Shown: in pieces, positions 5,118-47,415 of the stretch
How positions within the stretch are numbered: the first letter of the stretch is position 1
Layout of the letters: every line of letters starts with the position of its first letter
Source: a phage
Sequence record: PZ583738.1
Length of the DNA stretch: 64,000 nt
Strand: one strand, 5' to 3'
Translations under genes and position numbers: made by a program
Notes under the pieces: model-generated
Told to the model about the DNA's origin: nothing
The model's database searches: none
What the model saw: only the letters and a program-made list of their open reading frames with translations

Positions 5118-5162
5118 GTTTACAACCAGATTAAGATAAGACATAATGATTCCATACTGAGT
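5118..5162 (+). promoter_or_regulatory. early promoter (-35 GTTTAC, 18 bp spacer, -10 CATAAT) plus conserved leader cataatgattccatactgag
   Basis: Sigma70-like hexamers; leader repeated at about 45977, 46866 and 47392. Confidence 0.5.
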
Positions 5163-5188
5163 TAACAAACAAAACCTGGAGTTTAAAA

Positions 5189-5470
5189 ATGAACAAAGCA
5201 ACTTTCCTTCTGAACACCTTTAAAAATCTGGAAATTGAAGTTATTGCCTTGGTCAACAAATACCCAAATGGTGTTAATGGTAATGCTCTGAACAAACTAG
5301 TTAAAAAATATGAAAACTTAGCATATGACACTGATTTCTGGTGGAATGGTAATTATTCTACTCACACTAAAGATAAAAATGGTAACTGGTTGAAACTTCA
5401 AGAAAACAATGTTAACTTCAGAGACCTCATCAAGCGCCGGGTAGAAGTTCATTTAAATGGTATGGTATGA
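5189..5470 (+). CDS. hypothetical protein (early, between genes 23 and 24)
   Basis: 93 aa ORF preceded by GTTTAC -35 / CATAAT -10 early-type promoter and conserved leader cataatgattccatactgag, RBS GGAG. Confidence 0.55.
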   Translation: MNKATFLLNTFKNLEIEVIALVNKYPNGVNGNALNKLVKKYENLAYDTDFWWNGNYSTHTKDKNGNWLKLQENNVNFRDLIKRRVEVHLNGMV

Positions 5471-5477
5471 AAACAAG

Positions 5478-5505
5478 AAAGGGACCTCAAGGGTCCCTTT
5501 TTATT
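5478..5505. terminator. bidirectional terminator between ORF 5189-5470 and gene 23
   Basis: aagggacctcaagggtccctt hairpin with flanking A/T runs. Confidence 0.55.
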
Positions 5506-5520
5506 TAACTTAATCTAGGA

Positions 5521-7080
5521 TTAAATTCCTTTAACATATACGCGGCGGAAGTAACCGTTCAAGCCAAGGCTGTTAACGATGTCCGGCATGCCGTTCTGAA
5601 TGCGCTTGGTCGGAGCCTGAGCAGCAGGGTCAGCAAACGGGTTGATACCGATACCGTAACGGGTTTTGAAGCCCATAACCGGCTGGAAGTTTTTCGGGTC
5701 AGAACCACGCAGCGGGGTCAGTGCAACATATGGTGCGTAGTAGATACCAGCATCCATTTCGTTAGCGCCTTTGTAACCGATGGTGAAGTAATCTGCACGA
5801 GCATACTGGTCGATATAGACACGGTATTTGCCACCCAGAACACCAGCGAACACAGCTTTAGTGGTGTCAACGTTGAAACCTTTACCCAGACCCTGAGCAG
5901 CATAACTAACAGAAGTATCAACAGCAGCCAGCACGTTAACTACGTTACGGGAAGCGATGATGAAGTTACCTGCACCACGACCGGTCTGACGAGCGATTTC
6001 AGCGGCTTCTTTATCAATCTGGAACAGTAAAGCTTTGAAGCTTTCACCAGCCCAACGAGCACCACGGATATCAATTGGGTCCTGGAAGTCAAACACACCA
6101 GCTTTAGCGCCAACGGTGTTGGTCATACCAGATTTACCAACCTGTGCGGAGTAGTTAATCCAATCGATAACTTCGCGGTTGATTTCCAGCATAATTTCGG
6201 TAGCCAGAATACCACTCAATTCGGCATCAGCATCCATACCGTGAACAGCGCGGAGGTCCTGTGCCAGTTCGATGGAGTAGCTTGCTTTCAGCTGACGGGA
6301 TTTAGCTTCGATAACTTGTTTGTCGATGCGGAAGCCCATTTCGTTCCACGGGTTATCAGAGGAACCGTTAAAACCTTCTTGCAGTTCGGCGATGGAGGTA
6401 GCCATACCTTCAGCCAGTTCAGCCAGCTGACCAGCTTCCAACAGAGCGGTTACAGCGGCATCCAGTTTAGCAGCATCAGTAGCAGCAGCATCAACAGTTA
6501 CAGCTTCAACAGCCTGGAAGTGTGCGGAACCTGTTGCTTCAAAGAAGTGAGAATAAATTTTACCAACTTCCAGAACTTTGCTTGCAGCCAGTGCTTCAAA
6601 AGTCTTAGCAGCGCCCTGACCAGAGAACATAGCGTTCGGAGCATACATCGGATGGAAAGCTTCTTTAGCACCAGCAGCGACAGGGTCTTTACCGTAAACT
6701 GCACGCAGGGCAAATACCTGGCCAGTCGGGTTGTTCAGAGGCTGTACGCCGCAAATATCAAACGCAATCAGATGCGGGATAGCACGACGAACCATACCCA
6801 TAACTGCCGGCCCAATCTGAGTTACTGCACCAGAGGTCTGGCCGGCAGCAATATTGGTAGCATCATAACCATGGTCACCACCGATTTCAGCTTCGGTCAG
6901 GAAAGAACCAAATGCTTCAGAGATTTTTTCGTCACGGTATTCAGGAGCGGTCAGAATATCTTGTTCCTGGTTTTCAAAGATTTTAGCGATGATAGCTTGT
7001 TTAGAAGCACCAACGATTTCAGGAAGAGCTTCGTTTTCCAGCAGAGCGGACCATTTTTGAACTAATGCATTCTTTTTCAT
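5521..7080 (-). CDS. 23: major capsid protein gp23
   Basis: 519 aa; long stretches identical to recalled T4 gp23 (AIIAKIFENQE, GSFLTEAEIGGDHGY, GFKTRYGIGINPFA, FRRVYVKGI). Confidence 0.95.
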   Translation of the reverse strand: MKKNALVQKWSALLENEALPEIVGASKQAIIAKIFENQEQDILTAPEYRDEKISEAFGSFLTEAEIGGDHGYDATNIAAGQTSGAVTQIGPAVMGMVRRAIPHLIAFDICGVQPLNNPTGQVFALRAVYGKDPVAAGAKEAFHPMYAPNAMFSGQGAAKTFEALAASKVLEVGKIYSHFFEATGSAHFQAVEAVTVDAAATDAAKLDAAVTALLEAGQLAELAEGMATSIAELQEGFNGSSDNPWNEMGFRIDKQVIEAKSRQLKASYSIELAQDLRAVHGMDADAELSGILATEIMLEINREVIDWINYSAQVGKSGMTNTVGAKAGVFDFQDPIDIRGARWAGESFKALLFQIDKEAAEIARQTGRGAGNFIIASRNVVNVLAAVDTSVSYAAQGLGKGFNVDTTKAVFAGVLGGKYRVYIDQYARADYFTIGYKGANEMDAGIYYAPYVALTPLRGSDPKNFQPVMGFKTRYGIGINPFADPAAQAPTKRIQNGMPDIVNSLGLNGYFRRVYVKGI

Positions 7081-7101
7081 GTGTTGTATAACCTTATTAA
7101 A

Positions 7102-7920
7102 TTAAGAAATTCGTGATGCTGCGAGAGCAGACAAGTCCGCGAAGGACAGGGTAGGCTTGGCGCCTTTTTCTTCAACTGCTTCTGAAATGTAATTCAGTGC
7201 CGCAGCATCGTCTACATTTTTATTTATAGCGGCTTCGGTGATTGGTTTGTCGGTGGGTTCTACCTGACCTTTAACCATTTCAACGATAGCGCCAATTTTG
7301 GTACCGAATGCATCAGAGTATTCCATGCCTTCTACCAGAGAACCAACTTTTTCTTTCTGAGATTCAGTCAGGTCTTTAGTTGCTTCAGTCAACGCAACTT
7401 CACGTTGGACATAATTGATATAAGCATCACGCTTAGAAACTTCTTCGAACAGGTTAGCGGTTTCTTCTTTCTGTTCAGCCAGTTCTTCCTGCATTTCTGC
7501 AACAACATCAACAGATTCTTCCGGAACAACAACGTTGTGCTCAACGAACAGTTCTTTCATGCTGGTGAACATGGATTCGAACAGGTCAGCTTTAATGCCA
7601 CGGTCGACAGCCAGTTTATTTTCAGCAAGCCATTCTTTAGCAACGTGGTCCAGGAATTTAGCTGCAGATTCTTTCAGTTTTTTCTCTGCTTTTTCGTCGG
7701 ATTCTTCTTTATTCTTTTCGACTTCTTCTTCAGCTTTTTCAGCGATGGCGTGAATGTGAGATTCTGCCAGTTTGATGGCGTGTTGCTTGACGGTAGCTTC
7801 GAATACAGTGCCGAAGGTAGCTTTCGCTTCCGGGGACAAATTAACTGATTCGAAAATACTATCGAGAGCAACGGAAGCATCGATATTCTGAGCTTCGGCA
7901 ATGAGTTGTTCTTTAAGCAT
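7102..7920 (-). CDS. 22: prohead core scaffold protein gp22
   Basis: 272 aa acidic coiled-coil-rich protein in T4 gene 22 position. Confidence 0.85.
   Translation of the reverse strand: MLKEQLIAEAQNIDASVALDSIFESVNLSPEAKATFGTVFEATVKQHAIKLAESHIHAIAEKAEEEVEKNKEESDEKAEKKLKESAAKFLDHVAKEWLAENKLAVDRGIKADLFESMFTSMKELFVEHNVVVPEESVDVVAEMQEELAEQKEETANLFEEVSKRDAYINYVQREVALTEATKDLTESQKEKVGSLVEGMEYSDAFGTKIGAIVEMVKGQVEPTDKPITEAAINKNVDDAAALNYISEAVEEKGAKPTLSFADLSALAASRIS
7221..7228 (-). promoter_or_regulatory. late promoter TATAAATA upstream of gene 23 (within 3-prime end of gene 22)
   Basis: Exact motif about 140 nt upstream of gene 23 start. Confidence 0.4.
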
Positions 7921-7949
7921 TTTGTAGTCCTGTTGTTAAGATATACATT

Positions 7950-46471: not shown

Positions 46472-46520
46472 GTTTTACTTCCAGGTGGGATAATGTATAA
46501 TTATCCCATACTGAGTTACC
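46472..46520 (+). promoter_or_regulatory. early promoter / stem-loop cassette (PeSL-like)
   Basis: GTTTTAC, 17 bp spacer, TATAAT inside gggataa...ttatccc inverted repeat. Confidence 0.5.
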
Positions 46521-46542
46521 AAATAAAACACTGGAGAATAAA

Positions 46543-46839
46543 ATGTTTAACGCACCTGCATGGCACGCTACCCAAGCTCAAGAAGAAAACAAAGCAATCA
46601 TTTCTGCTAAAATTGAAGCTCAACTGAATGAATTGTGTGAAACTGCTTCTGAAGAAGTTGTTGCAATCATCAAACAGTATCCTGCATCCAACTACTCCCT
46701 GGCATGCATCAAAACAGAAATGGTTAACTTGTGGCGTAAGAACAAGAAAACTTTCTTGGGTATGCAGTACCAAGCAATCGCGACTGCAGTAGTAAACATG
46801 TATGACTTTGAAGTTTATTTCCCAACTTCTGAAAATTAA
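46543..46839 (+). CDS. hypothetical early protein
   Basis: 98 aa; preceded by early promoter/stem-loop cassette and RBS GGAG. Confidence 0.55.
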   Translation: MFNAPAWHATQAQEENKAIISAKIEAQLNELCETASEEVVAIIKQYPASNYSLACIKTEMVNLWRKNKKTFLGMQYQAIATAVVNMYDFEVYFPTSEN

Positions 46840-46841
46840 TA

Positions 46842-46890
46842 TGTACTTTGAAATTTAACTAAGACATAATGATTCCATACTGAGTTACCA
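46842..46890 (+). promoter_or_regulatory. early promoter plus conserved leader
   Basis: -35-like ATGTAC, CATAAT, leader gattccatactgagttacc. Confidence 0.4.
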
Positions 46891-46912
46891 AATAAACAAA
46901 CGGGATAATAAA

Positions 46913-47356
46913 ATGAAAACTTCAAAACTGGTTAAGTACGTTAAACTGGCATTAAACAACTCTTCTGAAGCTGAAGCACAATCCGCAGCACGTATGTTCT
47001 TCAAACGTCTGACAGCTGAAGGTATTTCATTTAACCCGGCAGTATTTGGTATCACTCGTGGCGAAGCTGCTAAACTGGCAACTCTGGCAGGTAAAATTTT
47101 TAAAGGTCTGAATGATGAGCAGGTTAAACCAGAAGTTAAACCTACTCCTAAAGCTGAACCAAAAGCTGAACGTAAGGCACCTAAACGCTCCGGTATGAGC
47201 AACAAAGATTTGTGCTATGATATGTTCAAAACTGTTAATATGTCTAATGGTGCTGCTCGCAGAGCTGTTATTGATATGATTGTGCGTGAGTTTGGATTCA
47301 ACAAAGCATCAGTTCAGTCTTATGCTTCCAACTTCCGCAAAGAATTTGAAATTTAA
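46913..47356 (+). CDS. immediate-early protein, paralog of 46035-46460, with K/P/E-rich linker
   Basis: 147 aa; linker KPEVKPTPKAEPKAERKAPKR; C-terminus ...GAARRAVIDMIV...QSYASNFRKEFEI; last about 28 nt identical to paralog. Confidence 0.6.
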   Translation: MKTSKLVKYVKLALNNSSEAEAQSAARMFFKRLTAEGISFNPAVFGITRGEAAKLATLAGKIFKGLNDEQVKPEVKPTPKAEPKAERKAPKRSGMSNKDLCYDMFKTVNMSNGAARRAVIDMIVREFGFNKASVQSYASNFRKEFEI

Positions 47357-47358
47357 TT

Positions 47359-47385
47359 CAAAGGGGGTATACAAGCCCCCTGCTT
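47359..47385 (+). terminator. terminator hairpin after ORF 46913-47356
   Basis: aagggggtatacaagccccct hairpin. Confidence 0.45.
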
Positions 47386-47415
47386 TAAGGCATAATGATT
47401 CCATACTGAGTTACA
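47366..47415 (+). promoter_or_regulatory. early promoter plus conserved leader, overlapping terminator hairpin
   Basis: GTATAC in hairpin loop, CATAAT, leader gattccatactgagttacac. Confidence 0.35.

Follow-up and report, generated by a model that had tools for sequence, protein, structure and literature searches.

In a 64-kb stretch of DNA (the window) from a T4-like Gaprivervirus phage (SP18/DK-13/VR20 group), several small genes are headed by nearly the same short sequence. The original prediction described four copies of an approximately 25-nt leader behind GTTTAC/GTGTAC-type -35 elements, each followed by a small open reading frame (ORF). A search of the window with the 24-mer CATAATGATTCCATACTGAGTTAC, allowing up to 3 mismatches, gave five matches, all on the + strand, and none in 100 dinucleotide-preserving shuffles (expected by chance, 0), which shows that the repeat family is real. 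All four predicted copies were recovered within 1-4 nt of their proposed positions, together with their -35 elements, 17-18 bp spacing and ORFs, and a fifth, hybrid copy with its own downstream ORF had been missed (Table 1). The cassette repeat (families D1/D3) is the largest direct-repeat family of the window. Weaker CCATACTGAGTTA-like matches (6812, 29924, 34897, 43533 and 55811) lack a promoter context and were rejected as chance. A generic sigma-70 scan of the window found promoter-like sites no more often than in shuffled sequence (10 vs 10.2), and the case for promoters therefore stands on the repeated family and not on consensus score alone.

Table 1. Coordinates of the cassette copies, the genes behind them and other features of the window.
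Feature	Position	Strand	Details
Gene 24	3798-5078	-	late gene
Cassette copy 1	5103-5188	+	between genes 24 and 23; A/T-rich upstream tract 5103-5117
Copy 1 promoter	-35 5118-5123; -10 5142-5147; discriminator 5148-5153	+	GTTTAC; CATAAT; GATTCC
Copy 1 24-mer	5142-5165	+	1 mismatch
Copy 1 leader	5154-5188	+	putative +1 A5154; SD GGAG 5178-5181
93-aa ORF	5189-5470	+	behind copy 1
Bidirectional terminator hairpin	5476-5502		3' of 93-aa ORF
Gene 23	5521-7080	-	late gene
Cassette copy 2	45894-46034	+	intrinsic terminator 45894-45910 plus T-run upstream, then A/T-rich tract
Copy 2 promoter	-35 45953-45958; -10 45977-45982	+	GTGTAC; CATAAT
Copy 2 24-mer	45977-46000	+	0 mismatches
Copy 2 leader	to 46034	+	putative +1 A45989; SD GGAG 46024-46027
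141-aa ORF	46035-46460	+	behind copy 2; phrog_9997
Cassette copy 3 (hybrid)	46473-46542	+	putative +1 A46508
Copy 3 promoter	-35 46473-46478; -10 46496-46501	+	TTTTAC; TATAAT
Copy 3 24-mer	46496-46519	+	3 mismatches
98-aa ORF	46543-46839	+	behind copy 3; phrog_27242
Cassette copy 4	46841-46912	+	putative +1 A46877
Copy 4 promoter	-35 46841-46846; -10 46865-46870	+	ATGTAC; CATAAT
Copy 4 24-mer	46865-46888	+	0 mismatches
Copy 4 leader end	46903-46913	+	GGATAATAAAA
147-aa ORF	46913-47356	+	behind copy 4; phrog_18416
Cassette copy 5	47362-47462	+	putative +1 A47403
Copy 5 promoter	-35 47367-47372; -10 47391-47396	+	GTATAC; CATAAT
Copy 5 24-mer	47391-47414	+	0 mismatches
197-aa ORF	47463-48056	+	behind copy 5; phrog_1203
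regB	57721-58182	+	endoribonuclease; PF10715, E 3.9e-72

The leader had been rightly recognised as a shared sequence, but its limits had not. The conserved unit consists of an A-tract, a GTGTAC(A) -35 element, a variable 17-18 bp spacer, CATAAT, GATTCC and a whole 5'UTR of the form ATACTGAGTTAC-CAAATAAAAC-ACTGGAGAATAAAATG, and conservation continues past approximately 25 nt over this entire 5'UTR as far as the start codon. The first 12 nt of the proposed leader, CATAAT-GATTCC, are the -10 hexamer and discriminator, so that only ATACTGAGTTAC and the sequence following it are likely to be transcribed. By consensus and by analogy with T4 and RB49, the element would be an active early promoter, with transcription probably starting at the A of CCATAC, 7 nt past the -10. 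The spacing becomes 17 if the -35 is taken as the sigma-70 hexamer TGTACA/TTTACA, and the -35 of the copy at 46841 is poor (3/6 vs TTGACA). The -35, -10, A-tract and C-rich -3..-1 positions agree with consensus features of T4-like early promoters (PMC1524935; PMC2988021). All 14 promoter-like sites of this type lie on the strand carrying the orthologues of T4 early and middle genes (tRNAs, regB and tk), opposite to late genes 23 and 24; the tRNAs detected in the window number only two. Both strand and consensus fit the proposed sigma-70-type early promoters with a shared leader, although this reading proved incomplete, and the suggested immediate-early timing of the downstream genes would follow by analogy with T4.

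The region of copy 1 is near-invariant among the orthologous regions of seven Gaprivervirus genomes, and its promoter, the 93-aa ORF and the terminator form a moron-like unit placed antisense between late genes 24 and 23. Copy 3 joins a family-1 type -10 region (TATAATTATCCC) to the family-2 leader, and an inverted repeat (GGGATAA/TTATCCC) spans its -10 (DNA hairpin -8.3 kcal/mol, z -2.4). In copy 5, a G5/C5 hairpin (47362-47381) overlaps the -35, and the leader is a chimera that has lost the start codon of the cassette (AAAATATT) and at GGATAATAAAA (47428-47438) runs into the promoter leader of the next gene, as comparison with VR20, VR25 and VR26 indicates. A working SD is predicted near 47451-47456, and the 197-aa ORF would now be driven by the copy 5 promoter. 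None of the five ORFs downstream of the cassettes (93, 141, 98, 147 and 197 aa) has a known function.

The leader was also searched for in related phages. About 35 Gaprivervirus genomes carry the cassette at 9-14 places each, where it heads at least 18 unrelated genes, and exact 17-mers are found 8 times per genome, on a single strand, in VR20, VR25 and VR26. Outside the genus, the same leader is present in Dhakavirus (IME341 and 04086), Tequatrovirus (ESH35) and Gualtarvirus (MP1 and PSTRCR_127), the five clustered copies in MP1 being annotated as promoters. The leader is common to four genera whose remaining DNA is too diverged for megablast, and it matched no E. coli genome and was not found in the first 50 kb of T4.

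Each copy is likely to be a complete cassette with which this T4-like Gaprivervirus phage expresses an early gene, and to belong to the promoter-early stem-loops (PeSLs), a class already described in T4-type phages. Host sigma-70 RNA polymerase would bind the A-tract, the GTGTAC(A) -35 and the CATAAT -10, 17-18 bp apart, and begin the transcript with the A of CCATAC. The first 12 or so bases of this transcript, the invariant ATACTGAGTTAC, may be an initial transcribed sequence that is adapted to start-site choice and to escape from the promoter; in a strong phage promoter, the initial transcribed sequence alters productive yield up to 25-fold (PMC12464699). The remaining leader is an unstructured A/C-rich spacer ending in ACTGGAGAATAAAATG, which would be a strong ribosome-binding site and at once agrees exactly with GGAGRAYARAA, the consensus for RegB/S1 cleavage (Durand et al. 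2006, reviewed in PMC3014915), and phage RegB could therefore switch the messages off a few minutes into infection. In copy 3, GGAGAATAAAA at 46533-46543 is identical to this consensus (11/11) and overlaps the ATG. Matches that are exact or of the GGAU variant occur at 46533, 46903 and 47428, and the consensus is exact in only three of the five copies; two copies score 9/11 and two carry GGAU. The exact pattern was found 4 times in the window vs 1.0 expected, a count reached in 1 of 100 shuffles. The predicted targets of RegB are the GGAG/GGAU motifs in the leaders of the cassettes, and regB itself is preceded by its own early promoter, at 57667. What speaks against the cassette reading is that no tested idea accounts for +1..+13 being invariant, beyond merely constrained, and that T4 does without the block.

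The identity of the leaders had been explained by coordinated expression, but co-regulation alone is insufficient, since the cassettes also are recombination junctions for the gain and loss of genes, bear apparent signs of gene conversion and contain the RegB/S1 site. Compared with the window, VR26 lacks 46546-46865 (the 98-aa ORF), with the two flanking cassettes fused by a crossover within CCCATACTGAGTTACCAAATAAA. Directly past the 47391 leader, VR20 has 777 bp and VR25/26 have 345 bp more, joined via GGATAATAAAA, and VR25/26 lack 45318-45905, with the junction GGGCTTTTTTATA in two terminators. These indel junctions between close relatives fall within the cassette or adjoining terminators, deletion and insertion not being distinguishable from such comparisons, and three of the breakpoints that separate the window from VR20 over 39.9-54.1 kb coincide with early-promoter cassettes. 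The published work that defines PeSLs also describes crossovers in the stretch from the -10 to the ATG (PMC2839356; PMC4122927). Because one and the same unit of 50-100 bp, in many cases with a terminator hairpin ahead of it, stands before many unrelated small genes, it would offer homology for recombination, which may delete, insert and swap small genes among related phages, while gene conversion would keep the copies alike. A cassette of this kind would combine strong early transcription, efficient translation, probable shut-off by RegB and modular gene shuffling.

The same observations might suggest that the promoter is real and the identity of the leader functionless, a remnant of recent duplication, hitch-hiking or gene conversion alone. 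Copies 2 and 4 precede paralogous genes (the C-terminal 75 aa of the 141-aa ORF being related to the 147-aa ORF), the last 31 coding nt of the 147-aa ORF (47312-47342) are identical to 46419-46449 of the 141-aa ORF (repeat D14), which suggests recent gene conversion, the indel junctions indicate that copies do recombine, and T4 early promoters function without a common leader. However, this explanation is unlikely, as conservation is patterned and does not form a single unbroken tract. Over 18 distinct gene contexts, it amounts to 66-94% for the A-tract at -44..-40, 61-94% for GTGTACA, only 33-61% for the spacer, 94-100% for ATAAT and 66-94% for +15..+20, so that a varying spacer lies between conserved blocks and -10 to +20 is constant. 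Among 11 orthologous groups, 29/187 columns are variable in the spacer, 8/143 at -12..-1 and 0/132 at +14..+25. Moreover, the two cassettes are identical at 24/24 positions though the paralogues behind them are only 43% identical in protein, and the leader is retained across the four diverged genera.

Distinctly unlikely is a specific cis-regulatory role of the block from about -6 to +13, either as a site (operator or 5' RNA tag) through which a phage factor shuts off early promoters or as a sigma-70-dependent promoter-proximal pause element. The block stays the same in 18 or more gene contexts and in four genera, which exceeds the usual contact needs of RNA polymerase, and CATACT (-1..+5), 11 nt past CATAAT, looks like another -10 hexamer, with A2 and T6 kept. 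The mechanism of T4 early-promoter shut-off is described in reviews as not understood (PMC2988021; PMC3014915). In some relatives, the spacer contains the reverse complement of the leader (GGTAACTCAGTAT..ATACTGAGTTACC in MP1 and CAGTATGG..CCATACTG in VR20), creating a dyad around the -10. On the other hand, strict family-2 copies of the window lack the dyad (z above 0), no candidate factor was identified, and family-1 early promoters of the same phage and those of T4 do without the block, which is therefore not a general shut-off site.

High conservation of a transcribed non-coding segment could also mean that the leader encodes a regulatory RNA with a defined fold (an attenuator, a riboswitch, an antiterminator or a small RNA) or else a short peptide ahead of the gene, both highly improbable here: all five leaders fold no better than shuffled sequences (MFE -0.5 to -4.5 kcal/mol, z +0.16 to +1.54), no Rfam family matched, and the leader has no ATG ahead of the gene start and stop codons in its reading frames. 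It is also very improbable that the cassette marks one end of an autonomous mobile element with its own recombinase or homing endonuclease, for although copies are dispersed and adjoin variable genes, the junctions lie in shared stretches of 11-23 nt, as homology-driven exchange predicts.

The T5 N25 promoter and the cassette promoters both read ...ATAAT-(A)GATTC-ATA... around the start. The likeness is one of sequence. The conserved +1..+13 of the cassette spans the region in which the initial transcribed sequence controls abortive cycling and escape (PMC12464699). Like T4 RegB/S1 sites, the cassette SD is intergenic and lies in an unstructured early-gene leader, with regB in the same window; T4 sites are individual, whereas here they sit in a repeated cassette and cleavage is a prediction. 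T4 early promoters share the A-rich tract, a GTTTAC-type -35 at about -36..-31, 17-18 bp spacing, a TATAAT-type -10, a start approximately 7 nt past it, the early strand and small non-essential genes downstream, and several also have an inverted repeat around the -10. In contrast, no conserved sequence follows the -10 in the first 50 kb of T4, whereas in the cassettes the start region is invariant and the 5'UTR is common to the family; their -10 starts with C (CATAAT), and their -35 has G where T4 has T.

PeSLs are known in the T4-type pairs RB49/phi1, PST/T4 and nt-1/KVP40 (Arbiol et al. 2010, PMC2839356; Comeau et al. 2014, PMC4122927). The present cassettes differ in that the transcribed leader (-12 to about +25), and not the promoter or stem-loop, is best conserved, and in that one leader is common to four genera; their -35 is GTGTAC (TTGACA in RB49 and TTTACW in PST/T4), and a stem-loop lies within or beside the promoter in only three of the five window copies, so that not every copy has the "SL" of the definition. 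In other respects, they resemble PeSLs: an AT-rich tract and a sigma-70-like early promoter, with SD and ATG closing the element on its 3' side, a stem-loop or terminator often upstream of or overlapping the -35 or -10 (the G-run/C-run hairpin over the -35 at 47367 resembling the RB49 type), grouping in hyperplastic regions ahead of ORFans, and indels between close relatives whose crossovers fall inside the element, some of them in the stretch from the -10 to the ATG.

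A search of the window for the 24-mer CATAATGATTCCATACTGAGTTAC, in which up to three mismatches were allowed, returned five matches, all on the + strand, and none was obtained in 100 dinucleotide-preserving shuffles of the window. In an unbiased repeat search (D1/D3), the family represented by these matches (family 2) was the largest direct repeat of the 64 kb, with five copies of 47-57 nt. The observation behind the original prediction, which had described four near-identical leaders of about 25 nt heading small ORFs under coordinated early expression, is confirmed and extended. 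The positions of the four leaders and their ORFs are correct, and a fifth copy (46496), which precedes a 98-aa ORF (46543-46839), had been overlooked. The conserved unit is much larger than 25 nt. When it is read as a sigma-70 promoter, the -10 hexamer and discriminator would account for the initial 12 nt of the supposed leader. The promoter-leader reading was right in kind and incomplete; the unit appears to combine a promoter of the PeSL type (the promoter-early stem-loop cassette of T4-type phages) with a full 5'UTR cassette. The additional copy is a hybrid, in which a -10 region (TATAATTATCCC) of family 1, the other early-promoter family of the window, lies in the inverted repeat GGGATAA/TTATCCC and is followed by family 2 from CATACTGAG on. 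Five weaker CCATACTGAGTTA-like core matches, considered as degenerate copies, lack promoter context and were attributed to chance.

Coordinates of the family-2 copies and of related features in the window
Feature	Position	Strand	Remark
24-mer copy (-35 start 5118)	5142-5165	+	1 mismatch
24-mer copy (-35 start 45953)	45977-46000	+	exact
24-mer copy (-35 start 46473)	46496-46519	+	3 mismatches
24-mer copy (-35 start 46841)	46865-46888	+	exact
24-mer copy (-35 start 47367)	47391-47414	+	exact
Upstream terminator of copy 45977	45894-45910		
Hairpin over -10 of copy 46473			z -2.4
G5/C5 hairpin over -35 of copy 47391	47362-47381		
Early-promoter-like sites	5118, 41202, 42128, 42438, 45953, 46473, 46841, 47367, 50392, 52246, 55051, 55512, 57667, 61580	+	
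Family-1 sites with -10 inverted repeats	41202-41256, 42128-42182, 42438-42491, 52246-52300, 55051-55105, 55512-55566		
Two tRNAs	44220-44369	+	
regB	57721-58182	+	PF10715, E 3.9e-72
tk	59943-60515	+	
Gene 24 (late)	3798-5078	-	
Gene 23 (late)	5521-7080	-	

The region is 92-98% identical to the Escherichia/Shigella phages TH44, CJ20, DK-13, VR20, VR25, VR26, and SP18, which are T4-like myoviruses of the genus Gaprivervirus (Straboviridae, Tevenvirinae). Because the tRNAs, regB, and tk lie on the + strand and the late genes 24 and 23 on the opposite one, the + strand, which also carries many small ORFs, corresponds to the early/middle strand of T4. Four family-2 copies are housed in the variable region between the tRNAs and gene e, where the closest relatives align only as 9-19 pieces. 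The remaining copy (5142) heads a 93-aa ORF that is closed by a bidirectional terminator of its own (5476-5502), and this promoter/ORF/terminator unit forms an antisense insert between genes 24 and 23, found at the same position in other Gaprivervirus genomes. All five copies occupy the hyperplastic or ORFan locations that are typical of PeSLs. Searches of Pfam, PHROGs, and PDB sequences gave no informative match for the five downstream proteins. Several other features of these regions were also recorded. The string TATTTATA at 5103-5110 corresponds on the - strand to TATAAATA, which is the consensus of T4 late promoters and lies 25-32 nt ahead of the start of gene 24 (5078), so that the A/T-rich tract upstream of copy 5118 probably also serves gene 24 as its late promoter. 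Between convergent genes, the hairpin AAAGGGACC(n4-5)GGTCCCTTT, a bidirectional terminator, occurs four times (2046-2089, 3765-3808, 5468-5511, and 26500-26543), and one of these hairpins terminates the 93-aa ORF. In the early region between regB and tk, a 157-aa ORF (59094-59567) contains a Macro domain (PF01661, E 1.8e-6).

The anatomy of the cassette was derived from an alignment of all copies from the window, VR20, VR25, VR26, MP1, and others, which represent 18 different downstream genes (contexts). As in PeSLs, the unit begins with an A-rich tract (A in 66-94% of the contexts at -44..-40; aaaagtt, aaaaagta, gaaaattaat, and similar in the window), followed by GTGTACA at -36..-30 (61-94% conserved), a variable promoter spacer (33-61%), and a -10 element (C/T)ATAAT (94-100%) with GATTCC next to it. 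The subsequent ATACTGAGTTA was the search anchor and is identical by construction; it is followed by C/A and an CAAATAAAAC-like A/C-rich stretch (66-94% at +15..+20), and ACTGGAGAATAAAATG is the last element. Read as a sigma-70 site, the -35 is TGTACA or TTTACA with a 17-bp spacer, and a promoter of this kind (-35, spacer of about 17 bp, -10) is present in all five copies, four of which also passed a generic TTGACA-N16-18-TATAAT scan, the -35 of copy 46841 being weak. Judged by the usual spacing and by the C-rich -3..-1 that early promoters of T4-like phages are reported to have (PMC1524935), transcription is likely to start at the A seven nt after the -10 (5154, 45989, 46508, 46877, and 47403). 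At the 3' end, GGAG or GGAT lies 7-8 nt upstream of an ATG in four copies; copy 47391 has lost its own ATG via a fusion. A stem-loop in or next to the promoter was found in three of the five window copies, and DNA folding gave no hairpin (z above 0) at copies 5118 and 46841. In VR20/25/26, a conserved terminator, ccttcggggtcc-T6, is located directly upstream of many copies. A tandem second promoter (TTGACC-16-CATACT) is not a general feature, as its -35-like hexamer is confined to the copy 45953 subfamily and its relatives.

A position-weight scan of the window detected 14 early-promoter-like sites, and the three that lay outside the training set scored 20-22 versus a shuffled maximum of 13.1. 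Family 1 reads TATgATTATCCCATCAACTACTGrrG and has in common with family 2 the motif kATyCCAT around the start and the string TACTGAG. Family 2 resembles family 1 without CAACT, after which comes a longer leader where ACTGGAG appears a second time, and the two families are joined at CCCAT|A in hybrid 46496; we infer that they may be of common origin. In family 1 (TATgATTATCCCATCAACTACTGGAG), an inverted repeat often brackets the -10 hexamer, with arms that differ between copies (GTGTAGG/CCTACAC, GGGATAA/TTATCCC, GTGGGAC/GTCCCAC, GATAGGGT/ACCCTATC, and GGTTG/CAACC) and DNA-fold z-scores down to -5.2; similar examples occur in T4 at 7215 and 20612 (L023). These hairpins fit the PeSL subclass with a stem-loop over the -10. 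A -10 hairpin is not universal, being found in family-1 promoters and the hybrid copy but absent from the strict family-2 copies of the window. In some relatives, the spacer contains the reverse complement of the leader (for example, GGTAACTCAGTAT..ATACTGAGTTACC, AACTCAGTATG..CATACTGAGTT, and CAGTATGG..CCATACTG; Morganella phage MP1 (L024) 2465-2549 and 3990-4070, VR20/VR25 L010:9420, L015:1214, and L012:4293), where a hairpin surrounds the -10 and has the leader as its 3' arm, an arrangement that the strict window copies have lost or never had.

Other repeats were also noted. Six + strand genes (41599, 41879, 42178, 42490, 54777, and 55567) start with near-identical codons ATGAAAACTTATCAAGAATTTAT (MKTYQEFI...), which presumably resemble the capsid-targeting leader of T4 internal proteins. 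Internal head proteins are annotated at the matching place in VR20, and the window and VR20 differ by a replacement of the internal-protein block 41892-42750. Several small ORFs are preceded by CAACTAATGAGGAAAATATTATG (D8; 50430-50452, 50611-50633, 52283-52305, and 63343-63365), a third translation-initiation string that is repeated in the window. Moreover, a 33-nt repeat, TTGGGTGTCCTCCTCTTCTGAATGTTAAGGAAT, occurs three times in 49588-50117, at intervals of 206-291 nt, where three small ORFs in tandem end, and VR20 has one extra unit as an insertion of 258 bp at 50124-50136.

The 3' end of the cassette also resembles a site for RegB, the phage endoribonuclease. The consensus of strong RegB/S1 sites has been reported as GG*AGRAYARAA in unpaired translation-initiation regions of early messages, with GGAU also being cut (PMC3014915). 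The cassette sequence GGAGAATAAAA(TG) matches this consensus at 11 of 11 positions. In the window, the exact pattern occurs at 46533 and GGAU variants at 46903 and 47428; together with 42765, these are the only four places with either form (1.0 expected). The sites at 46024 and 5178 match at 9 of 11 positions, and most copies in relatives read GGAGAATAAAATG here. The leaders are unstructured, so that an unpaired GGAG/U and an A-rich tract are found in an early intergenic initiation region, as in known sites, and RegB is encoded by the phage itself. Given the consensus match and the presence of regB, the ribosome-binding site of the cassette is very probably also a switch-off site for these messages.

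As suggested along with the original prediction, the leader was searched for in related phages, and it was present in Gaprivervirus relatives and three other genera. Exact 17-mers occur eight times per genome in VR20, VR25, and VR26, on a single strand in each, and in each of about 35 Gaprivervirus genomes BLAST located the leader at 9-14 places. Outside the genus, this start region and leader are shared by Dhakavirus IME341 and 04086, Tequatrovirus ESH35, and Gualtarvirus MP1 and PSTRCR_127; the five clustered copies of MP1 are labelled 'promoter' by MEME in its record. IMG/VR scans added only VR20, VR25, VR26, MP1, and chance matches. The conservation is patterned, with two conserved blocks flanking a variable spacer: in 11 orthologous groups from different phages, variable columns amounted to 29/187 in the spacer, 8/143 at -12..-1, and 0/132 at +14..+25, a stretch outside the search anchor. 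This pattern, the invariance of +14..+25, and the occurrence outside the genus argue for constraint on the leader rather than recent copying alone.

With regard to the start region, the initial transcribed sequence of a strong phage promoter has been reported to alter its productive output by as much as 25-fold, with escape taking place near +11 (PMC12464699). Promoter-escape tuning would be the most economical account of the invariant +1..+13. The block GATTCC-ATACTGAGTTAC (about -6 to +13) is retained in front of unrelated genes and in four T4-like genera and is absent from the other early promoters of the phage. It is improbable, though conceivable, that this block is a control site in its own right (an operator, a 5' RNA tag recognised by a phage factor, or a sigma-70-dependent pause) beyond an escape-optimised start region. 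This subset of early genes would then have a shut-off or timing separate from that of the others, which would bear on how T4-type early promoters get switched off. Of all the features of the cassette, only the invariance of its first 13 transcribed bases between genera goes beyond known promoter rules.

Other explanations of the leader were rejected. If it belonged to a general T4 early-promoter consensus, similar conservation would be expected in T4, where the early promoters of the first 50 kb show none after the -10 except an A at the start position; the leader thus appears to be lineage-specific rather than generic. One family-2 copy of VR25/VR26 (L021:3917 / L006:690) has a leader (..cgtccgtaagatgagaaaaatat..) homologous to a T4 leader downstream of a promoter-like site at ~11851 (L023), just upstream of srd, where T4 reads TATAGTATAAGTAGTTAACCGTCCG in place of the conserved block. 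Given this homology, at least one family-2 member is orthologous in position to a T4 early-type promoter. A structured RNA is not indicated either, as all five leaders fold worse than most shuffles (MFE -0.5 to -4.5 kcal/mol, z +0.16 to +1.54), and Rfam recognised only the two tRNAs in the window and no leader. The leaders contain no upstream start codon. Host mimicry was dismissed because none of 5,426 complete E. coli genomes matched the 52-nt consensus cassette.

Comparison of 45.0-49.0 kb with VR20, VR25, and VR26 revealed three indels, every junction of which falls in a part of the cassette (two in leaders, one in terminators), and crossovers within the element are a PeSL feature. In the first, 46546-46865, including the 98-aa ORF, is missing from VR26, whose single cassette joins the upstream half of copy 46496 to the downstream half of 46865 within CCCATACTGAGTTACCAAATAAA. 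The second follows the leader of copy 47391, where VR20 has an additional 777 bp (two ORFs) and VR25/26 an additional 345 bp (one ORF). All three phages have a separate promoter (GTTTAC...GGGAACAtgaTAGTATgTTCCC) for the 197-aa gene, the leader of which includes GGATAATAAAA there; in the window, both leaders are fused exactly at this 11-mer, the cassette start codon is gone (AAAATATT), and copy 47391 is the putative driver of the gene via a 60-nt chimeric leader. In the third, VR25/26 are without 45318-45905, with a junction (GGGCTTTTTTATA) common to two terminators. Across 39.9-54.1 kb, three breakpoints relative to VR20, either additional to or identical with those above, coincide with early-promoter cassettes (41892-42750, 47427-47439, and 52237), including the promoters 42128/42438 and 52246. 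The 141-aa and 147-aa ORFs are paralogues with only 43% identity over 75 residues, and yet their cassettes are identical at 24 of 24 positions and their last 31 coding nt are 100% identical (46419-46449 vs 47312-47342; D14), which suggests gene conversion next to the cassettes.

Many small early genes annotated without function in the SP18/VR20 group appear to use one plug-in expression cassette, which comprises a promoter, start region, leader, ribosome-binding site, and probable RegB cut site. It may serve as a simple tag by which the likely immediate-early genes of these phages can be listed from sequence, explains the break and rejoin points of their variable regions, and is predicted to be a natural part of small size that drives early expression strongly and in a self-limiting manner.

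No publication describing the family-2 motif was found; a search of the Gaprivervirus literature gave nothing on promoters, and the MP1 paper gives only a count ('12 promoters'). PeSLs have been described as an AT-rich tract, an early promoter, a stem-loop of variable position, and SD plus ATG, clustered in hyperplastic regions beside ORFans, with crossovers mapped between -10 and ATG or in the stem-loop (PMC2839356). Later work added T-even and Schizo-T-even phages to those known to carry PeSLs and pointed out PeSL-like sequences in JS98 (PMC4122927). Family 2 shows five of the defining features of PeSLs, and the stem-loop occurs in only three of the five window copies. It is a PeSL-type early promoter with a full 5'UTR cassette of a Gaprivervirus phage, of predicted activity. 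In comparison with PeSLs, its own features are that the transcribed leader is the best-conserved part, that +1..+13 is invariant, that the 3' end is a perfect RegB/S1 consensus, and that the leader is common to several genera. With T4 early promoters it shares the aaagttGTTTAC-N18-TATAAT layout, together with a GTTTAC-like -35, A-rich -40..-44, TATAAT-like -10, and C-rich -3..-1 (PMC1524935; T4 sequences).
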